A stretch of 32,000 bases of DNA from a bacterium (GTDB taxonomy: Bacteria > UBP6 > JAFGXH01): contig JAMOQH010000182.1 of assembly GCA_027064085.1 (NCBI GenBank), forward strand, positions 6,849 through 38,848, given 5' to 3'. The position numbers and the translations under genes are program-made. Below the pieces are notes generated by a model. It had not been told where the DNA came from and made no database searches. It saw only the letters and a program-made list of their open reading frames with translations. Shown in pieces: positions 1,134 through 21,307 of this stretch. Within the stretch, counting starts at the first letter, position 1; each line of letters begins with the position of its first letter.

Positions 1134-1631
1134 TTATTTACAAACATCAATCCATCTATTCTGATTTTCATCAAATTCAGGCTCACATAATTCATATTGA
1201 GAGCAACTGTATTCTGTGCATGGATTTTTTTGGCAATCTAATACAGGATGTATTCCTGAATAATCATGAATTGGTAAGTAACCAGGATTACATACACAAT
1301 CTCCCATTGAGTCGCAATGAGTATTATATCCGGTACATGAGCAAGAATTCTGCTGAGGTCTTTTACATACAAGAACAGGAGTTGTTGCACCACTTGTATC
1401 TATATCACTTTCAAATCCAGCATCACAAACACAGTAAGGTTCTCTTTCCCCAACAACGCAGTGCTGATTAGCATCACAGTTGTAATTTATACAGGTGTTT
1501 TCAACACATGTGTTTCCGCCTTCGGGAATAACCTGACCTGCAGGACATGATGTATGTGGCCCCGGAGCACAGCTAACTGCCAATAATGTTAATAAAGCGA
1601 ACAATGATGTTATAAAAGAAGCTCTGTACAT
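1134..1631 (-). CDS. Secreted Cys-rich protein with EGF-like modules (probable lipoprotein)
   Basis: ORF track 1134-1643. I prefer the ATG at 1631, preceded by GGAGG with a 5-nt spacer, over the TTG at 1643. The N-terminus MYRASFITSLFALLTLLAVSC has a signal peptide with a lipobox-like Cys. The mature part has more than 20 Cys in CxxxxC/CxC spacing typical of EGF-like modules (..CDANQHCVVGEREPYCVCDAGFE..). Confidence 0.7.
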   Translation of the reverse strand: MYRASFITSLFALLTLLAVSCAPGPHTSCPAGQVIPEGGNTCVENTCINYNCDANQHCVVGEREPYCVCDAGFESDIDTSGATTPVLVCKRPQQNSCSCTGYNTHCDSMGDCVCNPGYLPIHDYSGIHPVLDCQKNPCTEYSCSQYELCEPEFDENQNRWIDVCK

Positions 1632-1881
1632 AAATACCTCCAAAAGTATGAGCTAGTAGAAAACAGTCTGAAATGTAAAGTCTTTTCTTACACTCGCTGT
1701 ACCTATACTATACAGTATCATTATGATATTGTCAAGTGCAAAATATAGGCCTTATGACTGATTTTTTTTGATTTTTTCTCAAATTACAATCAAAACTATA
1801 CTAATCGTCAGCCAATTTCAAAAAGGTGAATGTTTAAAAAATGACTTTAAAATCTAAATAACTTGATATATCAATTGCTTT

Positions 1882-2340
1882 ATGTTATGTTTTCTAGCTA
1901 GATTTATTAGTCTATGGGGGAACTATTTGGAGTGGAATATTCATCCTTTTAAGGAAGAGCCTTTGAAATCATTATTCTTATCTGTTTTTTTATTGATGTT
2001 ATTCATTATTTTGTTTTTAATCTTTCCTAATATTCCTTTTGTATTTGCTTCAATAATTGTAATGATTTTATCATTAAGAGGTTATTTGTTTAAATCTAAG
2101 TATAAATTAGAGCCTGAAAATTTAACTGTTAAAATGCTAGTTTTTGAATATAAAAAAAAGTATATTGATTTTAAAAGAGTTTATATTGGTAAATCTGCTT
2201 TTTTAATGTCTCCTTTTACATATAAAACAAAATTAAATAGATATAGAGGTATATATATACCTTTTCCGGAAAATTTAAGAGAGAATGTTATTACATTTAT
2301 TAGTGGGAAATTTGAAGATGTCGTTATCACAGAAGGATAA
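1882..2340 (+). CDS. Hypothetical membrane protein (two N-terminal TM helices, soluble C-terminal domain)
   Basis: ORF track entry. Hydrophobic stretches SLFLSVFLLMLFIILFLIF and FVFASIIVMILSL are present. There is no obvious Shine-Dalgarno box, so the start is uncertain. It overlaps the next gene, suggesting co-transcription. Confidence 0.5.
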   Translation: MLCFLARFISLWGNYLEWNIHPFKEEPLKSLFLSVFLLMLFIILFLIFPNIPFVFASIIVMILSLRGYLFKSKYKLEPENLTVKMLVFEYKKKYIDFKRVYIGKSAFLMSPFTYKTKLNRYRGIYIPFPENLRENVITFISGKFEDVVITEG

Positions 2341-2659
2341 AAAACTTATTGATACTTATGCAATAAAGTTAGTGAATAAAGGTTGGGGCACAATGGCAAT
2401 AATGTTTTTTGATTCAACAAAATATTTAAGTAATATTGGAAGTCAGTTATTGCATGTTTTGAGTCCTACTTTAACAATGATTCCATATCTTAATAACTTT
2501 TTTAAAGATTCTGACCAAATTTCAGAAATTCTTGAAGATAGAGATAATGTAGAGTATTTTATTACTAGAATTGAATACTTTATGAATGAAGAGAGTAAAG
2601 CAAAAGAAAACAAGAGGAAATTATTAGATAAAAATAATGATGGAGCAAAACATGAGTGA
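2318..2659 (+). CDS. Hypothetical small protein (113 aa)
   Basis: ORF track 2285-2659. I prefer the internal ATG at 2318 (MSLSQKDKK..), which shortens the overlap with the upstream gene. No family is recognised. The 3' end overlaps the ATPase gene start (ATGAGTGA). Confidence 0.5.
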   Translation: MSLSQKDKKLIDTYAIKLVNKGWGTMAIMFFDSTKYLSNIGSQLLHVLSPTLTMIPYLNNFFKDSDQISEILEDRDNVEYFITRIEYFMNEESKAKENKRKLLDKNNDGAKHE

Positions 2660-4505
2660 TGAAAACAAGAAAAATCTTGATATCAATGTAATTGTTGCGA
2701 CTGATTGTGGAAGTACCACGACAAAAGCAATTCTTATTCAAAAAATTCAAGATGAAACAGGAAAATGGGTTTATAGACAAACTTTTAGAGGAGAAGCTCC
2801 AACAACAGTTGAAGCTCCTTTTGAAGATGTTACCATGGGCGTTTTAAATGCAATTAATGAATTAGAAGATTTGAGTGGCTTAAAAATTCTAGATGATGAT
2901 AATAACATTATCAGACCAGCAAAAGGTAAAATTGGTACAGATGTTTACATTTCAACATCTAGTGCAGGTGGTGGTCTTCAAATGATGGTTACTGGTGTTG
3001 TTAGAAATATGTCAGCAGAGTCCGCAGAAAGAGCGGCTCTAGCTGCTGGTGCAATTGTTATGGATGTAATAAGTGCAAATGATAAAAGGCTTGCTCATGA
3101 ACAAATAGAACGAATTAGGCAACTTAGGCCGGATATGATGTTGCTAGCTGGAGGGATTGATGGAGGAACGAAATCTCATGTTATGGAAATGACAGAACTT
3201 GTTTCTGCTGCTGCACCACAACCAAGGCTTGGTGGATTATTACCTATTATCTATGCTGGAAACCAAGATGTTGTAGAGGCTGTTAAAGATAAACTTGGAG
3301 CAAAAACAGATTTATCAATTGTTGATAATGTTAGACCAACCCTTGATGATGAAAATATTGCCCCTGCAAGAGATAAAATACATGATTTATTTATGGAACA
3401 TGTTATGGCTCAAGCTCCTGGATATAAAAAACTTATGAAGATGACTGATGTTCCTATTATGCCTACTCCTGGTGCAGTTGGTTTAATTATGGAAGAAATT
3501 GCCAAAAGAGATGGTATAAATGTTGTTGGTGTTGATATTGGAGGAGCTACAACAGATGTATTTTCTGTTTTTGATACTAAATTTAACAGAACCGTTTCTG
3601 CAAACTTAGGTATGAGTTACTCTATATCAAATGTTTTTGCTGAAGCTGGACTTCCAAATGTTATGCGTTGGGTTCCATTTAATATGAATGAAAAACAACT
3701 AAGAAATTCAATTAAGAATAAAATGATTAGGCCTACTACTATTCCTCAAAAACTTGAGGATTTAGTATTGGAACAAGCTGTTGCAAAAGAAGCATTAAGG
3801 CTTTCTTTTGTTCAACATAGAGAATTTGCAACAGAACTAAAAGGAACTCAGAAGAAAAGAACAATTTCTGATGCTTTTGCACAAGGAGGAGGAGATGGTT
3901 CTTTAATTAATATGATGCGTTTGGATATGCTTGTTGGTAGTGGTGGAGTTTTATCACATGCTCCTAAAAGGGTTCAGACTGCTTTAATGCTTTTGGATTC
4001 ATTTCAACCAGAAGGATTTACAACATTAACTGTTGATTCTATTTTTATGATGCCTCAACTTGGTGTTTTAACGGAAATATCTCCTGAAGCTGCTGTACAG
4101 GTTTTTGAAAGAGATTGTATTATTTATCTTGGTGAGTCTATTGCTCCAGTTGGGCATGCTAAAAAGAAAGATGATATAATTGCAGAATATAAAATAGAAA
4201 TGCCAGATGGTAAAATAATTACTGAAAAATTAAAGTATGGCTCAATGAAAAAATATCCTCTTGCTGTTGGAGAAAAAGCTAAATTAACAATTACTCCAAA
4301 TGCTAAGTTTGATATGGGGGCAGGTAAAGGTAAATCGATGACTAAAGAAGTAAGTGGGGGTGTTGTTGGTCTGATTATTGATGGCCGAGGAAGACCCTTA
4401 AATTTACCGACTGAAGCCTCAGAAAGAGTTAGGAAATTAACCGAGTGGATGGAAGAGTTAGAGATTTATCCAACTAAAGTATTTAAAGATAATAAGGAGG
4501 TATAA
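2652..4505 (+). CDS. GlmL/MutL-family ASKHA (actin-fold) ATPase, hydantoinase/oxoprolinase-related
   Basis: ORF track 2637-4505. The ATG at 2652 is preferred because GGAG (2641-2644) sits 7 nt upstream. Two ASKHA phosphate-binding motifs are present, ..VATDCGSTTTKAILI.. and ..VVGVDIGGATTDVFSV... The C-terminal ..GGVVGLIIDGRGRPL.. is as I recall for this family. Confidence 0.85.
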   Translation: MSDENKKNLDINVIVATDCGSTTTKAILIQKIQDETGKWVYRQTFRGEAPTTVEAPFEDVTMGVLNAINELEDLSGLKILDDDNNIIRPAKGKIGTDVYISTSSAGGGLQMMVTGVVRNMSAESAERAALAAGAIVMDVISANDKRLAHEQIERIRQLRPDMMLLAGGIDGGTKSHVMEMTELVSAAAPQPRLGGLLPIIYAGNQDVVEAVKDKLGAKTDLSIVDNVRPTLDDENIAPARDKIHDLFMEHVMAQAPGYKKLMKMTDVPIMPTPGAVGLIMEEIAKRDGINVVGVDIGGATTDVFSVFDTKFNRTVSANLGMSYSISNVFAEAGLPNVMRWVPFNMNEKQLRNSIKNKMIRPTTIPQKLEDLVLEQAVAKEALRLSFVQHREFATELKGTQKKRTISDAFAQGGGDGSLINMMRLDMLVGSGGVLSHAPKRVQTALMLLDSFQPEGFTTLTVDSIFMMPQLGVLTEISPEAAVQVFERDCIIYLGESIAPVGHAKKKDDIIAEYKIEMPDGKIITEKLKYGSMKKYPLAVGEKAKLTITPNAKFDMGAGKGKSMTKEVSGGVVGLIIDGRGRPLNLPTEASERVRKLTEWMEELEIYPTKVFKDNKEV

Positions 4506-5635
4506 TGGGGCATGCTTATACACCAGGCCTTAAGGTTACCAAAAGAGCTGTTGTAAGAAAACAAAGACTTCTACCTATTAAGGGTGATGTTTTAGTGAAA
4601 AAAGGTGACAAAGTGAAACCAAATGATATTGTTGCAAAAACAGAGTTGCCAGGTATAGTATTACCGGTTAATCTTGCAAATAGATTAGGTGTTTTACCTG
4701 CTGATGTACCATCTATTGTAACAATAAAAGAAGATCAAAGAGTAGAGGCTGAAACAACAATTGCAACAAGTAAGTCCTTTTTCGGACTTTTTACAAACGA
4801 GTATAAAACTCCAATTGCTTCTACCCTTGAATCAGTATCTAATATCACCGGGCAATTGATTTTGAGAGGAGATCCCATTCCTGTTGAAGTAAGGGCATAT
4901 ATTACTGGTACTGTAACAGAAATCTTTCCTGAAGAAGGAGTTATGATTGAAGAAGTTGCGGCTTATATTCAAGGTATTTTTGGAATAGGTGGTGAAGTTG
5001 ATGGTACTCTTGAAGTGATTAGTGAAACTCTTGATGATGTTGTTGATGAACACAAAATAAAGCCTGAACATAAAGGAAAGATTTTAGTTGCAGGTTCACT
5101 TGTTACTGGGGCTGCTCTAAATAAAGCTGTTGAGTATGGTGTAAGTGGCATTATTACTGGCGGTTTTGAAGATCAAGATTTAAAAGCTTTTTTAGGTTAT
5201 GATATTGGTGTTGCAATTACAGGAACTGAAGAAAAGGGTATCTCTTTGGTTGTAACAGAGGGATTTGGGCAAATTAAAATGGCTCCTAGAACTTTTAATT
5301 TATTAAAATCTCATAATGGACATTTGGTTTCAATAAATGGTTCAACTCAAATTAGAGCTGGCGTTATCAGACCAGAAGTTATTATTCCTCTTGGTGAAGA
5401 ACTTCAAGCAGATATTCCATCTGCTGAATCAGAAGGAGCTGCATTGAAAATTGGTGCATATTTAAGGATAATTAGAAGGCCTAATTTTGGTGAAATCGGA
5501 GTTGTAACTGAATTGCCACCAGATCCAACTAAATTAGATTCTGGAACTTATGCAAGAATTTTAAAGTTAAAATTAAATAAAAATGGTGAAGAGGTTATTG
5601 TTCCAAGAAGTAATGTTGAAATGATAGAGGAATAA
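4505..5635 (+). CDS. Uncharacterised soluble protein, partner of the GlmL-like ATPase; N-terminus resembles a lipoyl/biotinyl-type hybrid barrel
   Basis: The start shares a TAATG overlap with the ATPase stop and is preceded by AGGAGG. The N-terminus ..KGDVLVKKGDKVKPNDIVAKTELPG.. has the G-D-x-V / G-D-x-V pattern of barrel-sandwich hybrid domains. No TM segments are present. Confidence 0.8.
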   Translation: MGHAYTPGLKVTKRAVVRKQRLLPIKGDVLVKKGDKVKPNDIVAKTELPGIVLPVNLANRLGVLPADVPSIVTIKEDQRVEAETTIATSKSFFGLFTNEYKTPIASTLESVSNITGQLILRGDPIPVEVRAYITGTVTEIFPEEGVMIEEVAAYIQGIFGIGGEVDGTLEVISETLDDVVDEHKIKPEHKGKILVAGSLVTGAALNKAVEYGVSGIITGGFEDQDLKAFLGYDIGVAITGTEEKGISLVVTEGFGQIKMAPRTFNLLKSHNGHLVSINGSTQIRAGVIRPEVIIPLGEELQADIPSAESEGAALKIGAYLRIIRRPNFGEIGVVTELPPDPTKLDSGTYARILKLKLNKNGEEVIVPRSNVEMIEE

Positions 5636-5637
5636 TT

Positions 5638-7071
5638 ATGAGATATATATTAATATTTTTGTTTTTGGTGAGTGCAAATATGTTATTTGCACAAAATTCC
5701 GATAAAAAAGAAGTAAATAAAACTTCTGATGTAACTATTAGTAAGGATAAGCCACAGGCTTCTCCTACGAAAAATACAATAGGAGATAAAAAAGAAGAAG
5801 CTGTACAAGAAGTTGCACAGGAAGAAAAGAAGTATGAATCATCTATTTTTAAATTAGAGAATCACAAAGAAAATCTTAGTGGAGTAAAATATTTTATAAA
5901 AGATGAAAATCTAAAAATTCCTACAAATTTTACAGTGAAAGATATTGATAATGATGGTGGGGGGATTGTTATATTGTCATGGAAATATCCACTAGAAGAT
6001 AATGCTGAGTTTTTTGAAATATTAAGACGCTCTGAAAAAGAAAAAGAATTTAAAAAAATAGCAACAATAAAAGCTAATAAAAAGGAATTTGTTGTTAAAA
6101 AAGTAGTTAAAGCAACTAAAAAAACTTCTAAAAAAGTAAAAAAAGCAAAGGACTTAAGTCTTTATGCTTTTAGAAATGCTGGATTAAATGATGACTTACA
6201 TTATTTTTATAAAATAGTAGTAAAAAAAGATGGAAGATTTAATGAAACAAAAGAAGTAAAGGTTCAATCTTTAGTTGCTATTTTTGATGCAAACAAGACT
6301 TCTGTACTTATTGCTGCAATATTTTTGACTTTTGCTATTGTGTTCTTTATTAAAATGGCTAGGTCCGGTAAAAAACTTTATATCAGAAGAATTGCAGGTT
6401 TAGATGCTGTTGACGATGCTGTTGGGCGTGCTACTGAAATGGGTAGAGAAATTATGTTTGTTCCTGGTATTGGAGATATAGATGACCCTCAAACAATCGC
6501 TGGTTTAACAATACTTGGAAGAGTTGCAAAATTAACTGCTCAGTATAAAACGCCATTATCTGTTCCTGTCTCTAAATCAATGGTAATGGTTACAGGAAGA
6601 GAAATTGTTAAAGAATCATATTTGAGTATGGGAAGGCCAGAAAATTTTCAAAGTGGAATGGTTTATTATTTAACTGATGACCAATTTGGCTTTGCTGCTG
6701 GTGTTGATGGTATTATGGTTAGAGAAAAACCTGCTACAATATTTTTACAAGGTAGTTTCTTTGCAGAATCATTAATTTTAGCAGAAACAGGTCATCATGT
6801 TGGAGCTATTCAGATTTCAGGAACAGCTGCACCATCTCAATTACCTTTCTTTATCACGGCATGTGATTATACTCTTATGGGCGAAGAATTATATGCTGCA
6901 AGTGCATATCTTTCAAGAGAGCCGCAATTACTAGGTTCATTAAGAGGACAGGATGCCGGTAAAGCAATTATCTTAGCTGCTATCATTATTGGGATAGTGT
7001 TAGAAACAATAGCTGCCGTTAATCCTGATTTGCAGTGGTTGAGTATTAAACACTATTTTCATATTAAATAA
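5638..7071 (+). CDS. Membrane protein: signal peptide, FN3-like ectodomain, TM helix, large conserved C-terminal domain of unknown function (I believe it is a DUF-class family, unverified)
   Basis: GAGGAA lies upstream. The signal peptide is MRYILIFLFLVSANMLFA/QN. Next come a beta-rich segment (..GGGIVILSWKYPLEDNAEFFEILRR..), K-rich linkers and the TM helix VLIAAIFLTFAIVFFIKMA. A well-ordered domain follows (..RRIAGLDAVDDAVGRATEMGREIMFVPG.. ..GHHVGAIQISGTAAPSQLPFF..), then a final TM helix. Confidence 0.8.
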   Translation: MRYILIFLFLVSANMLFAQNSDKKEVNKTSDVTISKDKPQASPTKNTIGDKKEEAVQEVAQEEKKYESSIFKLENHKENLSGVKYFIKDENLKIPTNFTVKDIDNDGGGIVILSWKYPLEDNAEFFEILRRSEKEKEFKKIATIKANKKEFVVKKVVKATKKTSKKVKKAKDLSLYAFRNAGLNDDLHYFYKIVVKKDGRFNETKEVKVQSLVAIFDANKTSVLIAAIFLTFAIVFFIKMARSGKKLYIRRIAGLDAVDDAVGRATEMGREIMFVPGIGDIDDPQTIAGLTILGRVAKLTAQYKTPLSVPVSKSMVMVTGREIVKESYLSMGRPENFQSGMVYYLTDDQFGFAAGVDGIMVREKPATIFLQGSFFAESLILAETGHHVGAIQISGTAAPSQLPFFITACDYTLMGEELYAASAYLSREPQLLGSLRGQDAGKAIILAAIIIGIVLETIAAVNPDLQWLSIKHYFHIK

Positions 7072-7083
7072 AAGGAGAGATTA

Positions 7084-8871
7084 ATGCGTAAGGAAATACC
7101 TTTATTTATTACTGGACTTGTTGGTATAGTCCTAATATTACAATATTTTAGTCCTAATAAATCAATTAATGGTTTAGAGGGAATCTTTACAAATTGGATG
7201 CAAATTATTGCTGCATTTAGTATGATTTTAGGAGTTTTAAACCTTATCAGGGTTAATGGTGATAAAATATATAAAAAAAGAAAAAATTGGGGATTTAGTA
7301 TTGTAATTATTGTATCTTTGTTTGCTACGCTAATTATTGGTTTTGCCAATATTGGTGGTAAGTCAATGTATAATAGAAAAATTTTAAGGACTAACGGAAC
7401 AGTTGTTGGTAATATAACTAAAGATGTGATGTCTCATAATGGTTTTAAAGTTACTGATGCTAGTTTTGGTATTATGTTTAAAGCTTTAGTTGATGCAACA
7501 CAAAAAGAAAAGACAATTTCATCTATTCTTCCTAAAAGTTTAAAAACAGGAGATTTGAGAGCTAAATTTGACAAAATGCTTCCTATAGTTAGAAAAAGAA
7601 GTCATAAATCAATAGAAATTGTTAATAATATTGGTAGGCAAGTAAATGTTGAATTAGAGTCTTCTTTAAAAAAGATGAATTCACAAAGTTTTAATGAGTC
7701 AATTTTAAGAGTTTATGATAATTTAGAAAAAACTATATTAGAAGAGAATAAAAATTTTAAATTAGAAAATAAAAAATTAATTGATGAAAATATAAAAGCT
7801 CAATTAGCATTTTTATTTAAAAATATTGATACAGCTAATTCAAACTTAAAGTATTATAAAGATATTAAAGTATTTATAACCGAATTTAATGATTTTTTAT
7901 CTAAAGATAAAGATTTAATTGCAAAATTAGATGAAAATATTAAGAATTCTAAGAGCTATAATGATTTTTATAAAAAATCCTCTGTTTTATTTGCTTTAAA
8001 GCAAAATAATAAACTTAATGACTTTTTACTAAAAAACATACTAGATACATATTTAAATAATATTTATGTTGCTAAAAGTTATAAAAATGCTAAGGTTAAT
8101 ATATTAAAATCATTATCAGGAAATAAAGATTTAATAAATGCTCTTACATTAAACATTGAAAATAAATTAACTCAGCAATATATTAAAGACTTTAATAAAT
8201 ATGTAAGTAATACAGAGCAGTATATATCAGGTAATAAATATGTGAAAGGTGATGCGATTATAAAAGCTACATATAAACCTATAATTGCTAAATTATATAC
8301 TACTGAGAAAAAGAAAATTGCAAGTGTTATTTCAGCAGAGCTTAAATCTCCTGCTTTGTTAAAAAAATTAAAAGTTAATCAGCTTTTTTTGACAAGTTTA
8401 ATAAAAAATTCAAAATCAGAAGTAACTGCTTTAGGTATATCTGAAAAAAGCAGTGAGTTTATTATGCAAAAATTATTGGAAGGTGGTGGAGAGTATAAAT
8501 TATATACTCTTGAAGTTGGTTCTTCATTTATGGAAATATATAGATATATTTTTACTCCTCTTTCTTCAACAATGTTTGCGTTATTGGCCTTTTTTGTTGC
8601 ATCTGCATCATACAGAGCATTTAGAGCTAGAAATAAGGAAGCTACTTTATTATTGGTTGCAGGATTTTTAGTTATGCTAGGAGCTGTACCTATTGGTGAA
8701 ATGTTATCAATTCCCGGAGTGTTTTCTGTAGCAGAAGTATCTGACTTTATTATGAATGTTCCTGTTATGTCGGTTCAGAGTGGAATTATGATAGGGGTAG
8801 CACTTGGCGTTATTTCTACATCTCTTAGACTTATCTTAGGAATAGAACGAAGCCATTTAGGAGGTGATTAA
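7084..8871 (+). CDS. Polytopic membrane protein with a long central Asn/Lys-rich low-complexity (coiled-coil-like) insert
   Basis: AGGAGA lies upstream. There are about 3 N-terminal and about 3-4 C-terminal TM helices. The central segment of roughly 360 aa is dominated by N/K/L/I with heptad-like periodicity. Confidence 0.75.
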   Translation: MRKEIPLFITGLVGIVLILQYFSPNKSINGLEGIFTNWMQIIAAFSMILGVLNLIRVNGDKIYKKRKNWGFSIVIIVSLFATLIIGFANIGGKSMYNRKILRTNGTVVGNITKDVMSHNGFKVTDASFGIMFKALVDATQKEKTISSILPKSLKTGDLRAKFDKMLPIVRKRSHKSIEIVNNIGRQVNVELESSLKKMNSQSFNESILRVYDNLEKTILEENKNFKLENKKLIDENIKAQLAFLFKNIDTANSNLKYYKDIKVFITEFNDFLSKDKDLIAKLDENIKNSKSYNDFYKKSSVLFALKQNNKLNDFLLKNILDTYLNNIYVAKSYKNAKVNILKSLSGNKDLINALTLNIENKLTQQYIKDFNKYVSNTEQYISGNKYVKGDAIIKATYKPIIAKLYTTEKKKIASVISAELKSPALLKKLKVNQLFLTSLIKNSKSEVTALGISEKSSEFIMQKLLEGGGEYKLYTLEVGSSFMEIYRYIFTPLSSTMFALLAFFVASASYRAFRARNKEATLLLVAGFLVMLGAVPIGEMLSIPGVFSVAEVSDFIMNVPVMSVQSGIMIGVALGVISTSLRLILGIERSHLGGD

Positions 8872-9731
8872 TGGAAAAGTTTTTTGAAAAATTATTAAAT
8901 ATAGATAGAAAAATAATATTTTTACTTATTGCTTTGTCTACATCCGTACCTTTGTTTTATTTTTATCCTCAAAAGATTATTGCAAATAAAGCATCAAGAA
9001 AATATAATGATGCTATAAATAAATTAGAAGAAAAAACTAAAAAAGGGGAAGAAGTTGTTGTTCTTATCTCTGGTGAATATGATCCTGGTACAGTACCTGA
9101 GTTATCTCCAATGGCAAGAGCAACAATTAAAAAATTATTAGATATGAAAGTTAAAATTATTATTATGGGGCTTGTTCCTATGGGGCCGCCATTGTTAATG
9201 GAAGAATTTAATGAGTTATTAAAAGAACCTAAATATTCTGATGTTAAATATGGTATAGACTATGTTAATTTGGGATATACAGTCGGTAATGCTGTTGTTA
9301 TTAAAGGTATGGTTAAAAATATAAAAGATAAATATCCTGTAGATGTTATGGGTACAGACTTAAATGAACTTCCACTTATGAGAAAAGTTAAAAACTTTGA
9401 TAACATAGATATGATAGTTAATTTTTCCTCTATGGGTGGTGGAGTTAAAACATGGATACAGTTTGCTAAAAAGACAACTGAAGAAAGTATGGACATCGTC
9501 TTTGGTTGTACTGGAGTTATGGTTCCTGAATCATATCCATATTTAAATTCAGGGCAAATTCAAGGTTTGTTAGGTGGATTAAAAGGTGCTGCTGATTATG
9601 AATCATTAATTAAAGAGCCTAAAAATGCAACAAAGTATATTTTTGCTCAGTCTATTGCACATGTTATCATTATGCTTTTTATTATTATTGGTAATATAGC
9701 ATTTTTTGTAACAAGAAAGAAAAGAGTTTAG
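8871..9731 (+). CDS. Bitopic membrane protein (TM helix at each end, alpha/beta-like central domain), function unknown
   Basis: The start shares a TAATG overlap with the upstream stop and is preceded by AGGAGGTGA. The TM helices are IIFLLIALSTSVPLFYF and IAHVIIMLFIIIGNIAFFV. Confidence 0.75.
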   Translation: MEKFFEKLLNIDRKIIFLLIALSTSVPLFYFYPQKIIANKASRKYNDAINKLEEKTKKGEEVVVLISGEYDPGTVPELSPMARATIKKLLDMKVKIIIMGLVPMGPPLLMEEFNELLKEPKYSDVKYGIDYVNLGYTVGNAVVIKGMVKNIKDKYPVDVMGTDLNELPLMRKVKNFDNIDMIVNFSSMGGGVKTWIQFAKKTTEESMDIVFGCTGVMVPESYPYLNSGQIQGLLGGLKGAADYESLIKEPKNATKYIFAQSIAHVIIMLFIIIGNIAFFVTRKKRV

Positions 9732-9741
9732 GAGGATATAA

Positions 9742-10374
9742 ATGAGTACTGAAATAGGAATTTGGGTAGCAGGTTTTTTAACATTAGCAATAATGTCCTT
9801 CTTGTATAAAGATAATCCTGTTTACAAAGCAGCGGAGGCAATATTTTTAGGCGTTTCTGCTGGTTACTGGACAGTTTATATGTTTTTTAATGTAGTAAAG
9901 CCATTATTAATAGATAATTTAGTTAAGGGCAATTTTTGGTATTTAATACCATTGGTATTAGGCCTTATGATGCTCGCAAGGCTTCTTCCTAATATTGGGT
10001 GGATTTCAAGATGGCCACTTGCCTTTGTTATTGGTATTACCGCAGGATTAAACTTTTACGCTTTTCTTGCTTCTGATGTTATAGGGCAAATTGAAGGTGC
10101 AATTAAGCCGTTAAATAACTGGGGTGGTGAACATCTGCTTAAGAGTCAAGGGCTTTGGAATACTCTTGCATCAATTGGGGTTATATCAACTCTAGTTTAT
10201 TTCTTTTTCTCAAAAGAACATAAGGGATTATTTGGTAAAACCGCTGGAATTGGTATTTTATTTATTATGGTCGGATTTGGTGGTTCATTTGGATATACCG
10301 TTATGGCAAGGATATCGTTATTAATTGGTAGAATGTATTTTATCTTTTCTACATGGTTAGGCCTAGCAAGTTAG
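9742..10374 (+). CDS. Polytopic integral membrane protein (about 5-6 TM), function unknown
   Basis: AGGAGG lies 6 nt upstream. The sequence is hydrophobic almost throughout. Confidence 0.75.
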   Translation: MSTEIGIWVAGFLTLAIMSFLYKDNPVYKAAEAIFLGVSAGYWTVYMFFNVVKPLLIDNLVKGNFWYLIPLVLGLMMLARLLPNIGWISRWPLAFVIGITAGLNFYAFLASDVIGQIEGAIKPLNNWGGEHLLKSQGLWNTLASIGVISTLVYFFFSKEHKGLFGKTAGIGILFIMVGFGGSFGYTVMARISLLIGRMYFIFSTWLGLAS

Positions 10375-10377
10375 TAA

Positions 10378-11043
10378 ATGTTTTCTTTTCCGAAATTAAC
10401 TAAATTAGCTAAAATATTAATTATTCTGAATGTTATTTTATGGGTAATTGAAGTAATTTTACTTAGAACTTCGTATTCCGATATTATAACTTCTATGTTT
10501 TTGACTCCTAAAGATGTTATGGGGGGGAAGGTTTGGCAATTATTAACTTATAGCTTTTTTCATTCACCTAATAATATTTTTCATCTAGTTTTAAATATGC
10601 TTGTGTTGTATTTCTTTTCTTATGATTTAGAAATTAAATGGGGTAAAAGGCGCTTTGTATTTTTTTATTTAATATCAGCATTGGTTGGAGGTATTTTTGT
10701 TGTATTAGAATCACTTTTTTTTATTACCAGCCATTATACTATTCCAACTTTAGGAGCAAGTGCTTCAATTTTTGCCCTAACAACGGCCTATGCACTATCT
10801 TATTCTAACAGAGAGATTTATTTTTTTATCTTTCCAATAAAAGCGAAATATCTAATTCATATTGATTTGGCTATAATTATCTTAAGTTATTTGTCAATTT
10901 CTAGCTCAAATATTTCTAATGCTGCTCATTTAGGTGGTATGTTTTCTGCATTTATGCTTATTAAGTTGCCTTGGTATAAATTATTTAAAAGAAAGGTTCA
11001 TAAAAAAGAAAAAGTTACTGAATATTTAAGAAGAGTTAAATAA
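10378..11043 (+). CDS. Rhomboid-family intramembrane serine protease
   Basis: Signature motifs are WQLLTYSFFH, GASASIF (the GxSx catalytic Ser helix) and AAHLGGMFSAF (the catalytic His helix). Six hydrophobic helices are present. It starts 3 nt after the previous stop. Confidence 0.85.
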   Translation: MFSFPKLTKLAKILIILNVILWVIEVILLRTSYSDIITSMFLTPKDVMGGKVWQLLTYSFFHSPNNIFHLVLNMLVLYFFSYDLEIKWGKRRFVFFYLISALVGGIFVVLESLFFITSHYTIPTLGASASIFALTTAYALSYSNREIYFFIFPIKAKYLIHIDLAIIILSYLSISSSNISNAAHLGGMFSAFMLIKLPWYKLFKRKVHKKEKVTEYLRRVK

Positions 11044-11195
11044 TGGAAAGAAGGGAGTTTTTTAAAATTATATTTTTAATGTTTTTAGCTTTTTCTAATA
11101 TTTTTAGTAAAAATATTAGAAAAAGAAATAATATAAAATCAAAAATAGATAAATTAGCTCCTAATGCTAATGAAGACTATTATCTTTACCTATAA
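11043..11195 (+). CDS. Possible 50-aa single-pass membrane mini-protein (MERREFFKIIFLMFLAFSNIF..)
   Basis: Read by hand; it is below the ORF-track length cutoff. Its ATG shares the A of the rhomboid TAA stop (TAATG). It has one hydrophobic helix after an RR-E-F-F-K motif and a basic tail. The call rests only on coupling geometry and plausibility. Confidence 0.3.
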   Translation: MERREFFKIIFLMFLAFSNIFSKNIRKRNNIKSKIDKLAPNANEDYYLYL

Positions 11196-11228: not shown

Positions 11229-11256
11229 TTGACAGATAAAAATTTTATGTTAAAAT
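11229..11256 (+). promoter_or_regulatory. Sigma-70 promoter with extended -10
   Basis: TTGACA (11229-11234) is followed by a 16-nt spacer ending in TGT, then TAAAAT (11251-11256). It lies 24 nt upstream of the AAGGA-preceded ATG at 11280. Confidence 0.45.
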
Positions 11257-11279: not shown

Positions 11280-12122
11280 ATGAAAAAAATATTTTTATCA
11301 TTAATTTTACTTAATTCAATTGTGTTATATGCATTAACGCCAAAAGAGGAGTTTAATAAGGCTAAAAATTACTTTAATTTTGGTAACTATGATAGAACTA
11401 TTTCAATTTTAAAAAAGAATATTGTGAAACTAGAAAATAAAGATGATAAAATTGAAGGACTAAAACTTTTAGGAGCATCTTTATTTTTTAAAAATAAAAA
11501 AGAAGAATCAAAAAAACAATTCAGAGAACTACTTAGTATTTATGATAAAGTTGTTTTGGATTCTCTAATCTACCCTCCACCACTAATAACTTTTTTTAAT
11601 AAAATAAAAAAAGAGTTTATTGTAAAAAATAACATGATGAAAGATATTATCAAGAAAGATAAAAAGAAAAAAGAAGATGCTAAAAAACAGATTGTAATAA
11701 AAGAAATAAAATTTAAAGAAATTCATGAGGTAAAAACGACTATAGAAAAAAACTCATATTTTATGGCAATTGCTCCATTTGGTTATGCTCAGTACAGAAA
11801 CAATCAAAAAGGAAAAGCATATATGTTTTTAACAGCAGAATCTATTCTTTTAGCAAGTAATATTGTTAGTTATTTGTTAACTTATAATTTAAAAGACAAA
11901 AATGGATATTACACAGGTAGTAATAAAACAAAAGCAGAGGTTTATAACACTATTACAAAATATACATTTATTGCGTTTATTTCTTTTGTTGCCTATGGTG
12001 CAATTGATGGAACAATAAACTATAAGCCAATTTTTGAAACCAATATCATAAAGATAAAAAATAAACCTATAAGAATTAGTTTTTTAAATGGTAGTTTTAT
12101 ATCTTTTAAATACGATTTCTAG
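11280..12122 (+). CDS. Secreted/membrane protein, TPR-like N-terminal part, Lys-rich linker, two C-terminal TM helices
   Basis: ORF track 11226-12122. That start lies inside the promoter, so I prefer the ATG at 11280 (AAGGA upstream). It gives the signal peptide [18 protein letters not shown]. Confidence 0.65.
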
Positions 12123-12130
12123 GAGTAAAC

Positions 12131-13897
12131 ATGCCCTCTTTAAAGGTTAGTTTTAGTAATTCAGATCAAACATTAATCTTTCCTATTTTTAAAAAGTTAA
12201 CAACAATAGGAAATGATATAGATAATGATATATATATACCAGATATAACAATGTCTCCTTTACATGCTAATATTTTGTTTGATGGAGATAATTATTATCT
12301 TCACTCTATAAATAAGTCTCAAATATATTTTAATAAAAAGAAAACTAAAAAGCATAAGTTTTCAGAATATGATAAATTTATAATGGGAGCAACCATATTT
12401 GAGTTTATTCTACGAGACGAAGAGTTGGTTGAAGATTATGATAAAACAGTAGTAGACCAAAATATATATAAAAAGCTTTTAGAATTAAGTGATAGTATTC
12501 TTGAAATTAAAGAATTTGATATGTTACTTGAAAAATTACTTGATATGATAATATCTTTAGTGCAAGCAGAAAAGGGTTACATTTTAATATTTAAAGGAAA
12601 AGATATTGTTTCTGCTGCTGCAAGAAATATAAAAAAAGAAAATATTGGTAATCCACTAAGAGAACTATCCGATTCTATAATTGCCAAAGTGATAGAATCA
12701 GGAAAACCCATTATTATTAGTGATGCGTTAAATGATACAATATTTGGAAGTTCAAAATCTATAATTAATTTAAAATTAAGCTCTGTTTTATCTGCTCCTT
12801 TAAAGTCAGGTAGTGATTTAATAGGTTTAATCTATCTAGGTAATAATAGTGTTACTCACCTTTTTGAACATGAATCACTAGAAGCTCTAACTATTTTTGC
12901 GGCTCTTACTTCTCTAATTGTTCAAAATGCTTTTCTATTAAATCAATTAGATATAAAAAATGATGATAAGTTTAAAATGAAATATGGGAATATTATTGGC
13001 TCAAGCCCTAAAATGAAAGCAGTTTTTGATAAAATTGATAAAGTGGCACCTACTGATATATCTGTATTAATAACGGGAGAAACAGGTACAGGAAAAGAGT
13101 TGGTTGCTCAAGAAATTCATCATAACAGTGATAGAAGTGATAAGCCTTTTATTATTGTCAACTGTGCTGCTATTCCTGAAAATTTAATGGAGTCTGAATT
13201 TTTTGGTCATAAAAAAGGTTCTTTTACCTCTGCTGTTTCAGATAGTAAGGGTAAATTCCTTTCTGCAAATACTGGTACAATTTTCTTAGATGAAATTGGA
13301 GAAATGCCTTTAAGTTTGCAAGCTAAACTTTTAAGAGTTTTACAAGAAAAGATAGTGACACCGGTTGGCGATACAATAGAGCACTATGTTGATGTTAGGG
13401 TTATTGCGGCAACAAATAAAAACTTACCAGAAGAGGTGATAAAAGGTCGTTTTAGAGAAGATTTACTTTATAGATTAAATGTTATTCAGATTGAAATACC
13501 TCCATTGTCTCAAAGAGATGATGATATTGAAATTTTAGCTAAATACTTTTTAAATAAATTTTCTCAAAAATATAAAAAGAAAGTTGTTGGATTTTCTCCT
13601 AAAGCAATTGAAATAATGAAAAAATATTCATGGTTTGGAAATGTTAGAGAATTAGAAAATAAAGTAAAAAAAGCTGTAGTTTTATCAGATAAGGTACATA
13701 TTACTGAAGAATTACTTGGTATTACTGATAAGGCTATGGAAGGAATAAAACCATTAAGTATTGCAAAACAAGAATTTCAAAAAGAATATATTATGAATGC
13801 CCTTAATAAAAACAATGGGAATAAGGCTAAAACAGCAAGAGAATTAGAGATTGATGTAAGAACTATTTTTAGATATTTGGAAAAAACAATGCCATAA
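12131..13897 (+). CDS. Sigma-54-dependent transcriptional activator (bEBP) with FHA and GAF sensory domains and a Fis-type HTH
   Basis: AGGAG lies upstream. The N-terminus is FHA-like (..[26 protein letters not shown]..). A GAF-like region follows. The AAA+ core has Walker [16 protein letters not shown], a GAFTGA-loop variant GSFTSA, Walker B IFLDEIGE and RVIAATN. The C-terminal HTH is ..[21 protein letters not shown]. Confidence 0.9.
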
Positions 13898-17766: not shown

Positions 17767-18264
17767 ATGATTATTGTTCCTAAAAGTACAAAGAAATATA
17801 ACAGAAAGTCAATTCGTTTAAATGGTTATGATTATGCCCAAGGTGGATTATATTTTATTACAATAAATACATATCATAATCAATATTTATTTGGTGAAAT
17901 CAAGAATGAAGTAATGATATTAAATGCGCCTGGAAAAATGATAAATGCAATGTTTAGTGAAATTGAAAATGAGTTTGAGTATGTTATTATTACAGAATCT
18001 GTTGTAATGCCTAATCATGTTCATTTTATTGTTAAAATAGCAGGAAAGCCTAATAATATCGTATCATTAGGTGATGTAATTCAAATGTTCAAACGATATT
18101 CAACAGTTAAATATATTGAAAACGTAAAAAAGAATAATTGGGGTAGGTTTATTGGTAAAGTTTGGCATAGAAATTATTATGAACACATAATCAGAAATGA
18201 AAAGGATTATGAAAGAATAGCCAAATATGTAAGAGAAAATCCAAAGAATTGGGGTAGAAAATAG
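17767..18264 (+). CDS. REP-associated tyrosine transposase (RAYT) / IS200-like HUH Y1 transposase
   Basis: The N-terminus ..RKSIRLNGYDYAQGGLYFITINT.. is typical. The HUH motif is MPNHVHFIV. The catalytic Tyr region is ..NYYEHIIRNEKDYERIAKYVRENP. Confidence 0.85.
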   Translation: MIIVPKSTKKYNRKSIRLNGYDYAQGGLYFITINTYHNQYLFGEIKNEVMILNAPGKMINAMFSEIENEFEYVIITESVVMPNHVHFIVKIAGKPNNIVSLGDVIQMFKRYSTVKYIENVKKNNWGRFIGKVWHRNYYEHIIRNEKDYERIAKYVRENPKNWGRK

Positions 18265-18284: not shown

Positions 18285-18433
18285 GGGGTAGATTCCATAT
18301 CTACCCAAAAGGATAGAAAAGGGAAAAAAGGGAATAAAAATATGATAATATAGGAAAAAGAAGGGATTAAAAATATGATAATTAGAAGGCCGATGGAATC
18401 ATTGGGGCAGATATAGATATGGAATGGGGGGGG
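18285..18433. repeat. REP-like palindromes and short direct repeats immediately 3' of the RAYT gene
   Basis: A hairpin pairs GGGTAGAT (18286-18293) with ATCTACCC (18299-18306). The 12-mer ATTCCATATCTA (18292-18303) recurs inverted as TAGATATGGAAT (18414-18425). Twenty-bp direct repeats GGGA[A/T]TAAAAATATGATAAT lie at 18330-18349 and 18363-18382. GGGGTAGA..GATTCC is also present at 18251-18270. A G8 run ends the region. Confidence 0.55.
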
Positions 18434-18435
18434 AT

Positions 18436-19179
18436 ATGTGTATTTTTGCGATATCTATAAACGAGCATACAGAATATAGAATTATTTTGGCCTCAAATAG
18501 AGATGAGTTTTTTAATAGAGAGAGCCAAAAGGCTCATTTTTGGAAAAAAGAAGGGATAATTGCAGGCAAAGATTTAAAAATGGGTGGAACATGGTTAGGT
18601 GTGAATAATCAAGATAAAAAGATTGCTATTTTGACTAATTATAGGAATCCTTTGCTTGTTAATGTGAATTATAAGTCTCGTGGTATGTTGATTTTAGACT
18701 ATTTGACTCAGAAAATAGGTGTTGATAATTGGAGAATAAATATAAAAAAAGAAAAATATAACCCTTTTAATATCATTTTAGGAGATTTCAACAATTTATA
18801 CTATTACACAAATATAAACAATGAATTAATAAAATTAGAAAATGGCATACATGTATTAAGCAATGGATTTTTAAATGAGCCTTGGCCAAAAGTCAAAAAA
18901 TTAAGAGAATTATTTACTCAAACAATAAAATCAGATTTTAATCGTCAAAATTTAATAGAAATTATGAAAGATGAAGAAAAATTTCCAACAAATACTCTTC
19001 CTGATACTAATATTTCAAAAGAAATGGAGTATTTTTTATCTTCTATTTTTATAAATAGTAAAAAATACGGTACAAGGGCAACTACAATTGTAACTGTAGA
19101 TTATGAAAATAAAGTTAAATTTACTGAAGTATCATATAATAGTAAAAAAGAAATTATTTCTTATATTGATCTAAAGTAA
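18436..19179 (+). CDS. NRDE-family protein (DUF833 / TANGO2-like)
   Basis: ORF track 18424. I prefer the ATG at 18436, which gives the family-typical MC.. N-terminus. The diagnostic ..LASNRDEF.. motif is present. Confidence 0.85.
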   Translation: MCIFAISINEHTEYRIILASNRDEFFNRESQKAHFWKKEGIIAGKDLKMGGTWLGVNNQDKKIAILTNYRNPLLVNVNYKSRGMLILDYLTQKIGVDNWRINIKKEKYNPFNIILGDFNNLYYYTNINNELIKLENGIHVLSNGFLNEPWPKVKKLRELFTQTIKSDFNRQNLIEIMKDEEKFPTNTLPDTNISKEMEYFLSSIFINSKKYGTRATTIVTVDYENKVKFTEVSYNSKKEIISYIDLK

Positions 19180-21307
19180 AATATTTAACCTTACCTCCTT
19201 CTCTAATCCTTAAAACATAATTAGCTGGAACATCTGTTAAAATTGTTTCATCATGAGTTTTGTTTGGCCATTTAATGGTAATTTTATCAGCTTTACAATT
19301 GTCATCAATACCGATAATTACAAATGGGTCTTTTTGAATACCAAATAAACCATATCCTCCTTGAATTACTCTTGTATATTTTTTGCCATTTGCTTCTACT
19401 ATTATTTTAGCTCCAATTGCATCACTATTTGATTTTCCTTCATAACCAGCTCCCTTAATGTCAATCATAATTTTATTGCTATTTTGGCCTGTTTTGTTTT
19501 TAAAAAGATGAACATAACTATCTGTTGGTTTATTAATTGCTTCATCTCCTGTACTCCAACGCATTAAAGAACGCCCCATTAAAATATCATAATCTCCATC
19601 TCTATCATAATCTATTAATGCAATACCATGAGCTCTTATAAATTTTAAACCACTATCTTCTGTTACATTAATAAATTTAACATTATCAGTTTGTTCATAA
19701 ATCAAGCTTGATGTACCTGGATAATCAGAAGAAGTAATTACAATATCAATTTTGCCATCATTATTTAAATCTTCTGCAACTCCACCCAAGTCACCATCAT
19801 TCCAAGAGCCTTCTCTAGTTCTTGTTATGCCACTTTGTGCTTCATTAATTCTTTCTAATGGAGTATTAGGAAAGCCATTATTTATTAATAATTGTGTTTT
19901 ATCAGATGATGCCCCAATATGCCAATGAGCTAATTCTATAGAAAGCAAATCGTTATCACCATCATTATCAAAATCAGCACATAGCGAATTACTTGTATTC
20001 CCTCCAAGTCTAAAAGGTTTATCATCAAAACCTATATTCCAATTGTTTTCTAGGCCCGTACAATTAATAAGAGGTGCTTTTGCATTTGCACATTCTGAAA
20101 CACCACTATGATTTGCACAATAACAAGCAAAAAATTGATTATCAATAAAGTTTTCAATATTATCATGAGCGAAATTACTCTCAATTGATTTATTTATATA
20201 TTTCCCATTATTATACATAAATAATAAATTATTTTGACGCCCATAAGAAGATACTAAAATTTCTTCATATCCATCATTATTTAAATCGCATGCGTTTGCT
20301 CCCCAAGAAGGAGTATTGCTATTAGCATTCATCGCTTCTTCTATTGAAAACGGTTCCGTTTTAATGCCCATTTCTCCCGTTACATCAGTAAATATGCCAT
20401 TCCCATCACCTTTATAAAGAGTGTCTGTTAAAGTTGAATCTAATACACCATAAGTTGAATAATGATGTGCAACAAAGAGATCTAGGTTTGAATCTTTATC
20501 ATAATCAAGAAAAAGAGCTGAAGAAGCAGGGTTATACATAGTATCAGGAGAAAATTTTTGTTCTCTAGCAATAGTAAATATACCATTTCCATTATTAAGA
20601 AATATACTTGTTTTATCTAATCTAGTATTTGCCGCGCTATCTAAATATGCAATATTAATTGCATCTGGATATTGGTCATTATTTATATCTCCAAAAATCA
20701 CATAAGATGATATTCTACCACTATTTGTATCTTCTCTAGTTTTAAATAATCCAGATTGCCAAGTATAGTTTTCAAAAACTCCTTTATTATTTCTAAATAA
20801 GGCATATTGATATTTTGGATCTGATTTATCATATCTTGTTTTAGCTCCTTTAGTAACAACAAAGTCAGGCCAATGGTCTTGGTCTATGTCAGTAACGGTA
20901 ATGTTAGTTCCAATTACTCTTTTATCTTTAAATTGTAAGCTACTTGTAATATCTTCGAATTGAATTTTCTGACTTCCATTATTTAAGCATATTGTAGGAG
21001 GCTGTTCATTGCAATTTAATCTATCAACATAATAATTATCATAACAGTTACATTTAGCTTTATCATTTTCAATAATACATTCTCCATGGTTGCTACAATT
21101 AATATTAGTACAGGGAGTATTTTCTTTACAACTAAGTCCTTCTTCATGAAAATTTTCATTACAATTACACTTTGCTTTGTCACCTTCAATAACACATTCT
21201 CCGTGATTATTGCAATTTATATCACTACAAGCATTATTTTCACTGCTTCCACAAGATATAATCATTAAAATTAATGTAAAAAATGTAAAGTTTAGTATTT
21301 TATTCAT
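19154..21307 (-). CDS. CRTAC1-like lipoprotein: two EGF-like modules, seven FG-GAP/VCBS repeats, ASPIC/UnbV C-terminal domain
   Basis: AGGAGA lies upstream. The lipobox is ..LILMIISCGSS. Tandem modules are CxDINCNNHGECVIEGDKAKCNC and CTNINCSNHGECIIENDKAKCNC. Seven Dx[DN]xDGxxD-type repeats are present (DIDQDHWPD, GDINNDQYPD, LDYDKDSNLD, CDLNNDGYEE, ADFDNDGDND, EDLNNDGKID, IDYDRDGDYD). The C-terminus ..SNSDAIGAKIIVEANGKKYTRVIQGGYG.. matches UnbV/ASPIC. Confidence 0.85.
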   Translation of the reverse strand: MNKILNFTFFTLILMIISCGSSENNACSDINCNNHGECVIEGDKAKCNCNENFHEEGLSCKENTPCTNINCSNHGECIIENDKAKCNCYDNYYVDRLNCNEQPPTICLNNGSQKIQFEDITSSLQFKDKRVIGTNITVTDIDQDHWPDFVVTKGAKTRYDKSDPKYQYALFRNNKGVFENYTWQSGLFKTREDTNSGRISSYVIFGDINNDQYPDAINIAYLDSAANTRLDKTSIFLNNGNGIFTIAREQKFSPDTMYNPASSALFLDYDKDSNLDLFVAHHYSTYGVLDSTLTDTLYKGDGNGIFTDVTGEMGIKTEPFSIEEAMNANSNTPSWGANACDLNNDGYEEILVSSYGRQNNLLFMYNNGKYINKSIESNFAHDNIENFIDNQFFACYCANHSGVSECANAKAPLINCTGLENNWNIGFDDKPFRLGGNTSNSLCADFDNDGDNDLLSIELAHWHIGASSDKTQLLINNGFPNTPLERINEAQSGITRTREGSWNDGDLGGVAEDLNNDGKIDIVITSSDYPGTSSLIYEQTDNVKFINVTEDSGLKFIRAHGIALIDYDRDGDYDILMGRSLMRWSTGDEAINKPTDSYVHLFKNKTGQNSNKIMIDIKGAGYEGKSNSDAIGAKIIVEANGKKYTRVIQGGYGLFGIQKDPFVIIGIDDNCKADKITIKWPNKTHDETILTDVPANYVLRIREGGKVKYFTLDQYKK

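Follow-up and report, generated by a model that had tools for sequence, protein, structure and literature searches.

The DNA stretch analysed here raises the question of what an ATPase of the GlmL/MutL family does in the midst of genes for membrane proteins, and whether those genes belong together. The stretch, 32,000 nucleotides (nt) long and called as a whole the window, comes from a bacterium of the GTDB lineage UBP6 (assembly GCA_027064085.1, contig JAMOQH010000182.1, positions 6,849 to 38,848 of the forward strand). It is AT-rich (~28% G+C) and its sequence is identical to part of the ENA metagenome contig ERZ27262656 k141_147898. Ten plus-strand open reading frames (ORFs) follow each other between 1882 and 11195, every junction being an overlap or a gap of at most 12 nt: two small genes (a and b), the ATPase gene (G), the gene of its soluble partner (P), a cassette of four membrane protein genes (1 to 4), a rhomboid protease gene and an ORF encoding 50 amino acids (aa). 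Reading of the ORFs and their junctions confirmed the dense same-strand packing reported in the preliminary description of this locus. The first eight genes are a system, a-b / G-P / 1-2-3-4, that is widespread in candidate phyla related to the Fibrobacteres-Chlorobi-Bacteroidetes (FCB) group and that is, to judge from its sequences, under strong purifying selection. The rhomboid gene stays outside this core, as a neighbour specific to one clade.

Gene order and conservation in related loci

Related loci were collected by two scans. An alignment of DUF6754, the domain of protein 1, was scanned over one genome per GTDB species, which gave 522 confirmed relatives, of which the 79 best loci were retained; 80 further loci came from a metagenome scan for which the 376-aa protein P served as anchor. 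The 160 related loci (designated by L-numbers) were searched with the window proteins, and their neighbouring ORFs were clustered into families. The labels found among the best 79 of the 522 relatives are Zixibacteria, WOR-3/Stahlbacteria, Coatesbacteria, Eisenbacteria, Cloacimonadota, Fermentibacteria/Aegiribacteria, Neomarinimicrobiota, Poribacteria and Edwardsbacteria, with some Gemmatimonadetes, Acidobacteriota, Planctomycetota and other names. Protein 1 has more than 8000 relatives, which are ~50% identical across phyla, and the search with P returned at least 8000. Among 1.84 billion cluster representatives, the P family counts 1019 representatives (50% identity clusters) at E≤1e-30 and 3368 at E≤1e-3.

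Comparison of the 160 loci splits the block into the modules a-b, G-P and cassette 1-2-3-4. The order of the cassette, from the DUF6754 gene through genes 2, 3 and 4, is kept in 94 of the 96 testable cases and both exceptions are artefacts. The cassette is often found in two to three tandem, diverged paralogous copies (range one to three per locus), the one of the window being most like the first copy of such sets. G lies directly 5′ of P in 31 of 46 testable loci. The G-P pair directly precedes the cassette in 23 of 63 P-anchored loci and is found within 10 kb of it in 13 of 37 DUF6754-anchored loci, and this proximity is seen under at least seven phylum-level labels. Loci with the complete order abGP1234 bear the labels Zixibacteria, Aegiribacteria/Fermentibacteria, Eisenbacteria, Neomarinimicrobiota, Coatesbacteria, Acidobacteriota and Planctomycetota, while rearranged loci carry the same gene set with a divergent G-P pair, with a-b placed directly before protein 1 or with a duplicated G-P pair (L141). 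The duplication in L141 (3768-11119) is a tandem a-G-P-b-G-P arrangement with two copies of G; L014 (13917-21123) has two G genes, one detected P and two oppositely oriented cassettes.

Because the gene order recurs in 160 loci of other organisms, the block is a conserved unit and not a chance cluster, as had been supposed from the window alone, and the existence of the system is well documented. The related question of whether the GlmL-like gene travels with the membrane protein families is answered positively for many loci, with adjacency in about one third, and negatively for the rhomboid gene. The sequences themselves are highly constrained: G is 67–84% identical between loci that were also compared for GcvPB (54%), GcvT (46%), TolQ (55%) and TolB (54%), and the identities of P and of the membrane proteins in the same locus pairs equal or exceed these benchmarks. 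Since G, P and the membrane proteins match or surpass the Gcv and Tol proteins, their conservation is at the level of core cellular components.

The ATPase G and its partner P

Gene G (2652..4505; this and all features below lie on the plus strand unless indicated) codes a 617-aa ATPase of the ASKHA (acetate and sugar kinases/Hsc70/actin) fold. It matches the Pfam family MutL (PF13941) with an E-value of 5e-124 and 414.8 bits (cut-off 27), residues 19-494 of the ORF started at 2637 covering profile positions 1-450 of 450. Assignment to the GlmL/MutL type was therefore correct, yet G stays below every corresponding NCBIfam cut-off: 224.8 versus 475 for GlmL (NF040745), 216.4 versus 600 for Or-4 (NF040744) and 164.7 versus 204 for glmL_fam (TIGR01319). 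No relative was found among the sequences of the PDB. A conserved C-terminal extension of ~125 aa lies outside the 450-position MutL model. The nucleotide-binding motifs DCGSTTTK (phosphate-1), DIGGATTD (phosphate-2) and SGGxLSHAP (adenosine) are invariant in 16 orthologues and the mean column identity of G is 73%. Domain searches found no mutase, B12-binding, aminomutase or radical-SAM domain in any of the larger ORFs of the window, in agreement with the earlier statement that genes of the first three kinds are missing there. Mutase and aminomutase genes (glmS/glmE, oraS/oraE) are likewise absent from the recurrent neighbour families of the 160 loci.

The partner P (4505..5635) is a soluble protein of 376 aa. 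Its AlphaFold2 (AF2) model, with a predicted local distance difference test (pLDDT) score of 84.6, shows a beta-rich N-terminal half of the barrel-sandwich-hybrid type, an alpha/beta middle domain and a KOW/SH3-like C-terminal barrel. Foldseek comparison of this model with the PDB gave matches at the level of domains only. In Pfam, 16 of 17 members of the P family match Biotin_lipoyl, 12 match RnfC_N (best E-value 3e-5) and nine match NQRA_N; the window protein itself only reaches E 0.086 for this kind of N-terminal domain, below cut-off. The name NusG/Spt5, given to P homologues in some sources, was rejected: the likeness concerns the KOW-like end only (E 0.08 in two of the 17 members), whole-chain TM-scores do not exceed 0.18 and the NGN domain is not matched.

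G and P are also found as one polypeptide. In a metagenome-assembled genome of Neomarinimicrobiota (L052, 2-2623) a short linker connects them within a single ORF that is free of N bases. Two further fusions of 995 and 1003 aa (P0257 and P0360) were found among the 1.84 billion cluster representatives; over the first 600 residues, which contain the MutL domain, they show 60% and 50% identity with G of the window. We consider it probable that G and P work as one cytoplasmic ATP-hydrolysing unit.

The membrane cassette

Proteins 1 to 4 very probably form an obligate inner-membrane complex. Protein 1 (5638..7071; 477 aa) is the DUF6754 membrane protein, its residues 214-460 matching PF20539 with an E-value of 1e-119 and 398.9 bits (cut-off 27). 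The layout initially read from its sequence, a signal peptide followed by an ectodomain, a transmembrane (TM) helix and a large conserved domain, was found again and is completed by a second TM helix. The ectodomain is a predicted periplasmic FN3-like domain (5920..6267; residues ~95-210) that matches titin FN3 by profile (2.6e-11) and that is modelled by AF2 as a beta-sandwich (pLDDT 75-89). In L063 (8249-10789) a variant of protein 1 has a PQQ/BamB-like beta-propeller in place of FN3. The conserved domain of 203 aa (6355..6963) lies between the predicted TM helices 221-239 and 443-461 and is placed in the cytoplasm by the positive-inside rule, lysines and arginines being clustered just after the first helix. 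Its mean column identity is 73% over 65 sequences. A profile of these 65 sequences gave only non-significant matches in the PDB, the P-domain of Na,K-ATPase (E ~0.7-2) and MtnA (E 0.66), which would fit a Rossmann-like alpha/beta unit and prove nothing. Two apparent long forms of protein 1 were discarded: a fusion of DUF6754 to peptidase S49 in L018 (9788-12193) spans a run of 100 N, that is a scaffold gap, and the 1031-aa form of L029 is an artefact of stop-free high-GC reading.

Protein 2 (7084..8871; 595 aa) is polytopic, as first described, a reading that can now be refined: it belongs to a family of 6-TM proteins that are normally ~216 aa long. Homologues align only to its residues 1-95 and 475-595, and the intervening ~380 aa are a Lys/Asn-rich insert (7366..8508) in the predicted periplasmic loop between TM3 and TM4. 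In two loci of the Zixibacteria type (L023, 19407-21179; L031, 14926-16701) the protein 2 of the third cassette carries ~380 aa of FG-GAP repeats at the same loop. Protein 3 (8871..9731; 286 aa) is a membrane protein but not the bitopic one it was taken for; topology prediction gives a TM helix at each end of a 228-aa, predicted periplasmic domain, with both termini inside. Protein 4 (9742..10374; 210 aa) is polytopic with six to seven predicted TM helices. Its residues E32, R80, R190 and R197 are invariant, E32 being located in a predicted TM helix.

Proteins 2, 3 and 4 have no consistent match in NCBIfam or in the PDB. Pfam gave no consistent family across the members of the protein 2 family and no match for proteins 3 and 4, which were also without match in the PDB. 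Internal homology within the cassette (protein 1 with 3, protein 2 with 4) was looked for and not found. Homology to TolQ/ExbB stators (MotA_ExbB, PF01618) was rejected after hhalign assigned it a probability of 1.7% for protein 2 and 0.3% for protein 4. The statement that the membrane proteins match no described system holds for Pfam, NCBIfam, PADLOC, profiles of the PDB and this hhalign comparison.

Genes a and b

The two genes upstream from G code small proteins. Gene a (1882..2340, with an alternative TTG start at 1927 according to the gene caller) encodes a membrane protein with a hydrophobic hairpin of ~38 residues and a soluble domain of ~85 aa; it has no family match in Pfam. In 18 related loci a homologue is positioned 5′ of either G or protein 1. 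Gene b (2318..2659; 113 aa), whose homologues were found in 26 loci, always follows gene a. The a-b pair precedes G in most loci and stands directly before protein 1, with no G-P between them, in L058 and L074.

Operon layout and window neighbours

The successive spacings from gene a through the 50-aa ORF are -23, -8, -1, +2, +12, -1, +10, +3 and -1 nt, with starts as set by the gene caller. The preliminary description reported Shine-Dalgarno boxes for most starts: GGAG-type boxes are indeed present upstream of G, P and genes 1, 2, 3 and 4, and such a box is missing at the start of the rhomboid gene. A promoter-like site with a TG extension (TTGATA-17-TATGTT; 1863..1891, score 9/12) is found 5′ of gene a in the 238-nt gap that follows a divergent gene. 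A second one (TTGACA-16-TAAAAT, TG extension; 11229..11256, score 11/12) is positioned 24 nt 5′ of an ATG at 11280 that is preceded by an AAGGA box. It is near-consensus as had been noted, but its use as a marker of the next transcription unit is weakened by the frequency of such sites: 56 were found in the window versus 62.8 expected in shuffled sequence. Both sites are weak evidence because they occur at chance frequency in AT-rich DNA. A search for riboswitches and leader RNAs upstream of the operon found none.

The rhomboid intramembrane serine protease (10378..11043) matches PF01694 with an E-value of 1e-23 (84.2 bits versus a cut-off of 22.6) and has the motifs GASAS and AAHLGG, with the catalytic Ser and His in TM segments; it scores below the cut-offs of rhombosortase (TIGR03902, 30.6 versus 84) and GlpG (TIGR04239, 24.4 versus 250). 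Its gene was initially seen as the closing member of the system. It is absent from the 160 distant loci (L001-L079, L082-L161) and kept directly after protein 4 only in L162, L164 and L165, which belong to the clade of the window, and for this reason it is placed outside the core. A relative from this clade that keeps the rhomboid gene has a P that is 69% identical and different flanking genes. The 50-aa ORF (11043..11195) has a hydrophobic N-terminus and shares a TAATG junction with the end of the rhomboid gene. Its counterparts in the closest relatives, L164 and L165, show 66% identity, whereas none was detected in L162. This ORF may code a partner or substrate of the rhomboid protease, or be spurious.

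Two genes further downstream, a sigma-54 activator with FHA and GAF domains (12131-13897) is kept in L164 and L165 and not in L162. The remainder of the window comprises an ORF for an IS200-like Y1 transposase (17767-18264), a bacterial homologue of TANGO2 (18424-19179; PF05742, 2.6e-67) and several large, predicted exported proteins: a Cys-rich protein of 169 aa (1134-1643, minus strand), an FG-GAP/ASPIC protein (19154-21307, minus strand), a lamin-tail-domain protein (22476-24014, plus strand) and a 967-aa Kelch-repeat protein with MopE-like metal-binding motifs (25116-28019, minus strand).

Genomic surroundings in other loci

Among the clustered ORFs of the loci, Tol-Pal genes are the commonest neighbours outside the core. 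A full tolQ-R-A-B-pal cluster lies directly 3′ of P in ~10 loci. The Tol-Pal-bearing clade has an extra gene of ~260 aa between G and P (L088, 2624-3421; L092, 3900-4736; L094, 9113-9964; and nine other loci), whose product, unmatched in Pfam, combines a signal peptide with a periplasmic domain and is held in the membrane by a C-terminal TM anchor. In WOR-3 and Fermentibacteria loci a TolQ/ExbB-like gene is found ~3 kb after the cassette. These links to envelope genes are suggestive and limited to certain lineages. Lone P genes have housekeeping neighbours (grpE-dnaK-dnaJ; accA and era; or ftsZ-ftsA-ftsQ). In L146 (11123-12004) and L159 (11061-12011) the lone P is followed by a protein of ~300 aa resembling an outer-membrane beta-barrel, for which Pfam gave no match, and then by accA and era. 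A cobalamin riboswitch (96 bits) was detected in L079 (19542-19771), ~6 kb downstream of the cassette and at the very end of the locus; it is probably unrelated to the system.

A possible mode of action and its alternatives

Our reading, a tentative one, is that the system is an inner-membrane machine that is driven by ATP and acts on the cell envelope. According to it, G, a GlmL-family ASKHA ATPase with intact nucleotide-binding motifs, would constitute with P the cytoplasmic ATP-hydrolysing unit, and proteins 1 to 4 would assemble into an inner-membrane complex with ~16 TM helices. This complex would expose to the cytoplasm the constant, alpha/beta-like 203-aa domain of protein 1 and to the periplasm a variable face built from the FN3 domain or propeller of protein 1, the loop inserts of protein 2 and the 228-aa domain of protein 3. 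Working like a chaperone-like reactivase, G-P would bind and remodel the cytoplasmic domain exposed by protein 1, and we lean slightly towards the view that it is through this domain that G-P acts on the complex. ATP hydrolysis in the cytoplasm would then be converted into work on the periplasmic side, for which envelope maintenance would be the probable purpose; taken by itself, the claim that the outcome is ATP-driven, envelope-related work on that side is rather unlikely. The rhomboid protease would be an add-on of the clade of the window organism. Three parts of this scheme are inferred: that G-P and the cassette touch, which way the energy flows and that the system serves the envelope.

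Several observations weigh against it. In either anchored set, G-P adjoins the cassette in no more than about a third of the loci (23/63 and 13/37), and ~10 loci carry P with neither G nor cassette within 10 kb. The AF2 model of protein 1, built from 18 sequences, has a pLDDT of 55, and of less than 50 in the 203-aa domain, which makes it unusable for a fold search. The Tol-Pal link, found in few lineages, could be merely inherited gene order, and no result points to a substrate.

The alternatives are taken here in the order of the weight that we give them: independent modules, a transporter, an actin-like filament, a reactivase of the B12 type and a platform around the rhomboid protease. The same low adjacency would be expected if G-P and the cassette were two separate systems that are often neighbours, G-P being a soluble chaperone or enzyme pair and the cassette working alone, driven for instance by ion flow. 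The cassette has no G-P within 10 kb in six Poribacteria loci and in the full-flank WOR-3 loci L022 and L026, P also stands alone in housekeeping surroundings, and protein 4 has invariant charged residues, including E32 within a predicted TM helix. We nevertheless regard this separation as unlikely, for no fewer than seven phylum-level labels and several different gene orders show the adjacency, a-b has G as its neighbour in one set of loci and protein 1 in another, and all junctions of the window measure 12 nt or less. Alternatively, the cassette may be a new transporter of a solute, a lipid or a polymer that G-P energises or gates. The ~16 TM helices per cassette with their conserved polar and charged residues are in line with such a role, as is the presence of several paralogous cassettes with different periplasmic heads beside one ATPase, an arrangement reminiscent of permeases sharing an energiser. 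Likeness to the transporter families of Pfam, NCBIfam and the PDB was, however, not found, substrate-related genes are not among the conserved neighbours, and we know of no transporter class driven by an ASKHA ATPase; a transporter is decidedly unlikely.

It appears improbable that G is a membrane-tethered actin-like filament anchored or guided by the membrane proteins, as in MreB-MreCD, FtsA or PilM-PilNO. G has the required ASKHA fold, its 67–84% identity across phyla would be expected if the whole surface were constrained, and one lone P gene lies beside ftsZ-ftsA-ftsQ; against this, G belongs to the MutL/hydantoinase branch, treated as non-polymerising enzymes (PMC5597319, where glutamate mutase is listed among these), MreB, FtsA, PilM, MreC, MreD, PilN and PilO are not matched in Pfam, and fusion to the globular, 376-aa P poorly fits a filament subunit. 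Membership of the MutL family would also allow G to have kept a reactivase role for a cobalamin-dependent or radical enzyme, in which case P or the cytoplasmic domain of protein 1 would be a new enzyme of this sort. Both look alpha/beta, like B12-binding domains, and there is the cobalamin riboswitch 6 kb from the cassette of L079. Mutase, B12-binding and radical-SAM domains are absent from the window, though, and no riboswitch was found near the operon there or in the other four loci searched; the DxHxxG motif is not visible in P or protein 1 and G fails the equivalog cut-offs of GlmL and Or-4, which leaves this option highly improbable. Just as little probability is attached to a membrane-protein quality-control or processing platform centred on the rhomboid protease. 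A 3-nt gap couples the rhomboid gene to the cassette in the window and the gene is kept after protein 4 in the relative with the 69% identical P and other flanking genes, but none of the 160 distant loci carries it and the sole apparent protease fusion (S49 in L018) is the 100-N gap artefact.

If the reading as an ATP-driven envelope machine is retained, its furthest extension, which we regard as doubtful, is that of an unrecognised core envelope machine of mostly uncultivated phyla in which an ASKHA ATPase, rather than an ABC protein, an AAA+ protein or an ion-driven motor, powers modular inner-membrane complexes whose work is done in the periplasm. The labels concerned are Zixibacteria, WOR-3/Stahlbacteria, Fermentibacteria, Cloacimonadota, Marinimicrobia, Poribacteria, Eisenbacteria, Coatesbacteria and others. 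If true, trans-membrane energy coupling would gain a new class, and in these lineages the system might stand in for one of the canonical envelope, shape or division systems.

Comparison with known systems

The gene set is new in that it is undescribed in Pfam (2025), NCBIfam (June 2026), PADLOC, the PDB and the searchable literature; the function proposed for it above is to be read as putative. Names exist for two of its parts only, a domain of unknown function and an ATPase family. The PADLOC anti-phage models match none of the ten proteins. A search of the literature other than subscription-only sources returned nothing relevant on DUF6754 or PF13941, on GlmL combined with membrane, or on Zixibacteria combined with mutase. 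Three of the four membrane protein families have no Pfam entry and the fourth is a domain of unknown function, despite the size of these families and the selection acting on them. The system occurs in phyla known almost only from metagenomes, so that its role would fill a gap in their cell biology. The GlmL/MutL family, whose own mechanism is unsettled, could gain a function outside B12 enzymology, and metabolic reconstructions of these organisms can go astray where G is annotated as “glutamate mutase L”.

G shares with GlmL/MutL of glutamate mutase and with Or-4 of ornithine degradation full-length MutL homology and intact ASKHA motifs. It differs from them by its scores below their cut-offs, its additional C-terminal domain of ~125 aa, the lack of a mutase or B12 gene nearby and its pairing with P and with membrane proteins. 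As in MreB-MreCD, PilM-PilNO and FtsA, a cytoplasmic ASKHA protein is encoded beside inner-membrane proteins with periplasmic domains, but no component is homologous and G falls outside the known polymer-forming branches. Against the MreB, PilM and FtsA families, G gave only a trace of MreB-like_C (E 0.089; 13.8 bits versus 27.8), and proteins 1 to 4, singly or across family members, match none of MreC, MreD, PilN and PilO in Pfam and NCBIfam. The analogy drawn in the preliminary description is thus one of formal layout and does not extend to family membership. FcmB, a new actin family in the literature, is unrelated.

The RnfC and NqrA proteins resemble P in the N-terminal barrel-sandwich-hybrid domain matched in members of its family. 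Unlike them, P is devoid of 51K, SLBB and ferredoxin domains, and Rnf/Nqr membrane subunits are not present. The mechanotransmission ABC systems MacB, LolCDE and FtsEX would offer a parallel to the scheme proposed here, since in them cytoplasmic ATP hydrolysis moves periplasmic domains and the surroundings are envelope-related. Their ATPase is of the ABC and not of the ASKHA type, and permeases of the FtsX/MacB type were not detected by Pfam and NCBIfam searches.

Reactivases and the glutamate-mutase family are among the actin-like families that are alike enough to be placed in one tree (PMC5597319). DdrAB/GdrAB, the reactivases of diol or glycerol dehydratase, and EutA are reactivases with a small partner subunit; they have in common with G-P an actin-fold ATPase and a partner with an alpha/beta domain, although no sequence match was found between G and the reactivase proteins of the PDB. 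P is distinct from their partners by its length of 376 aa and its barrel-sandwich-hybrid and KOW-like domains, and the presumed client is a membrane complex instead of a soluble enzyme. Reactivases of the DdrAB/EutA type, with their chaperone-like working mode, are the nearest characterised relatives of G and may by analogy serve as the model for the mechanism proposed for G-P.

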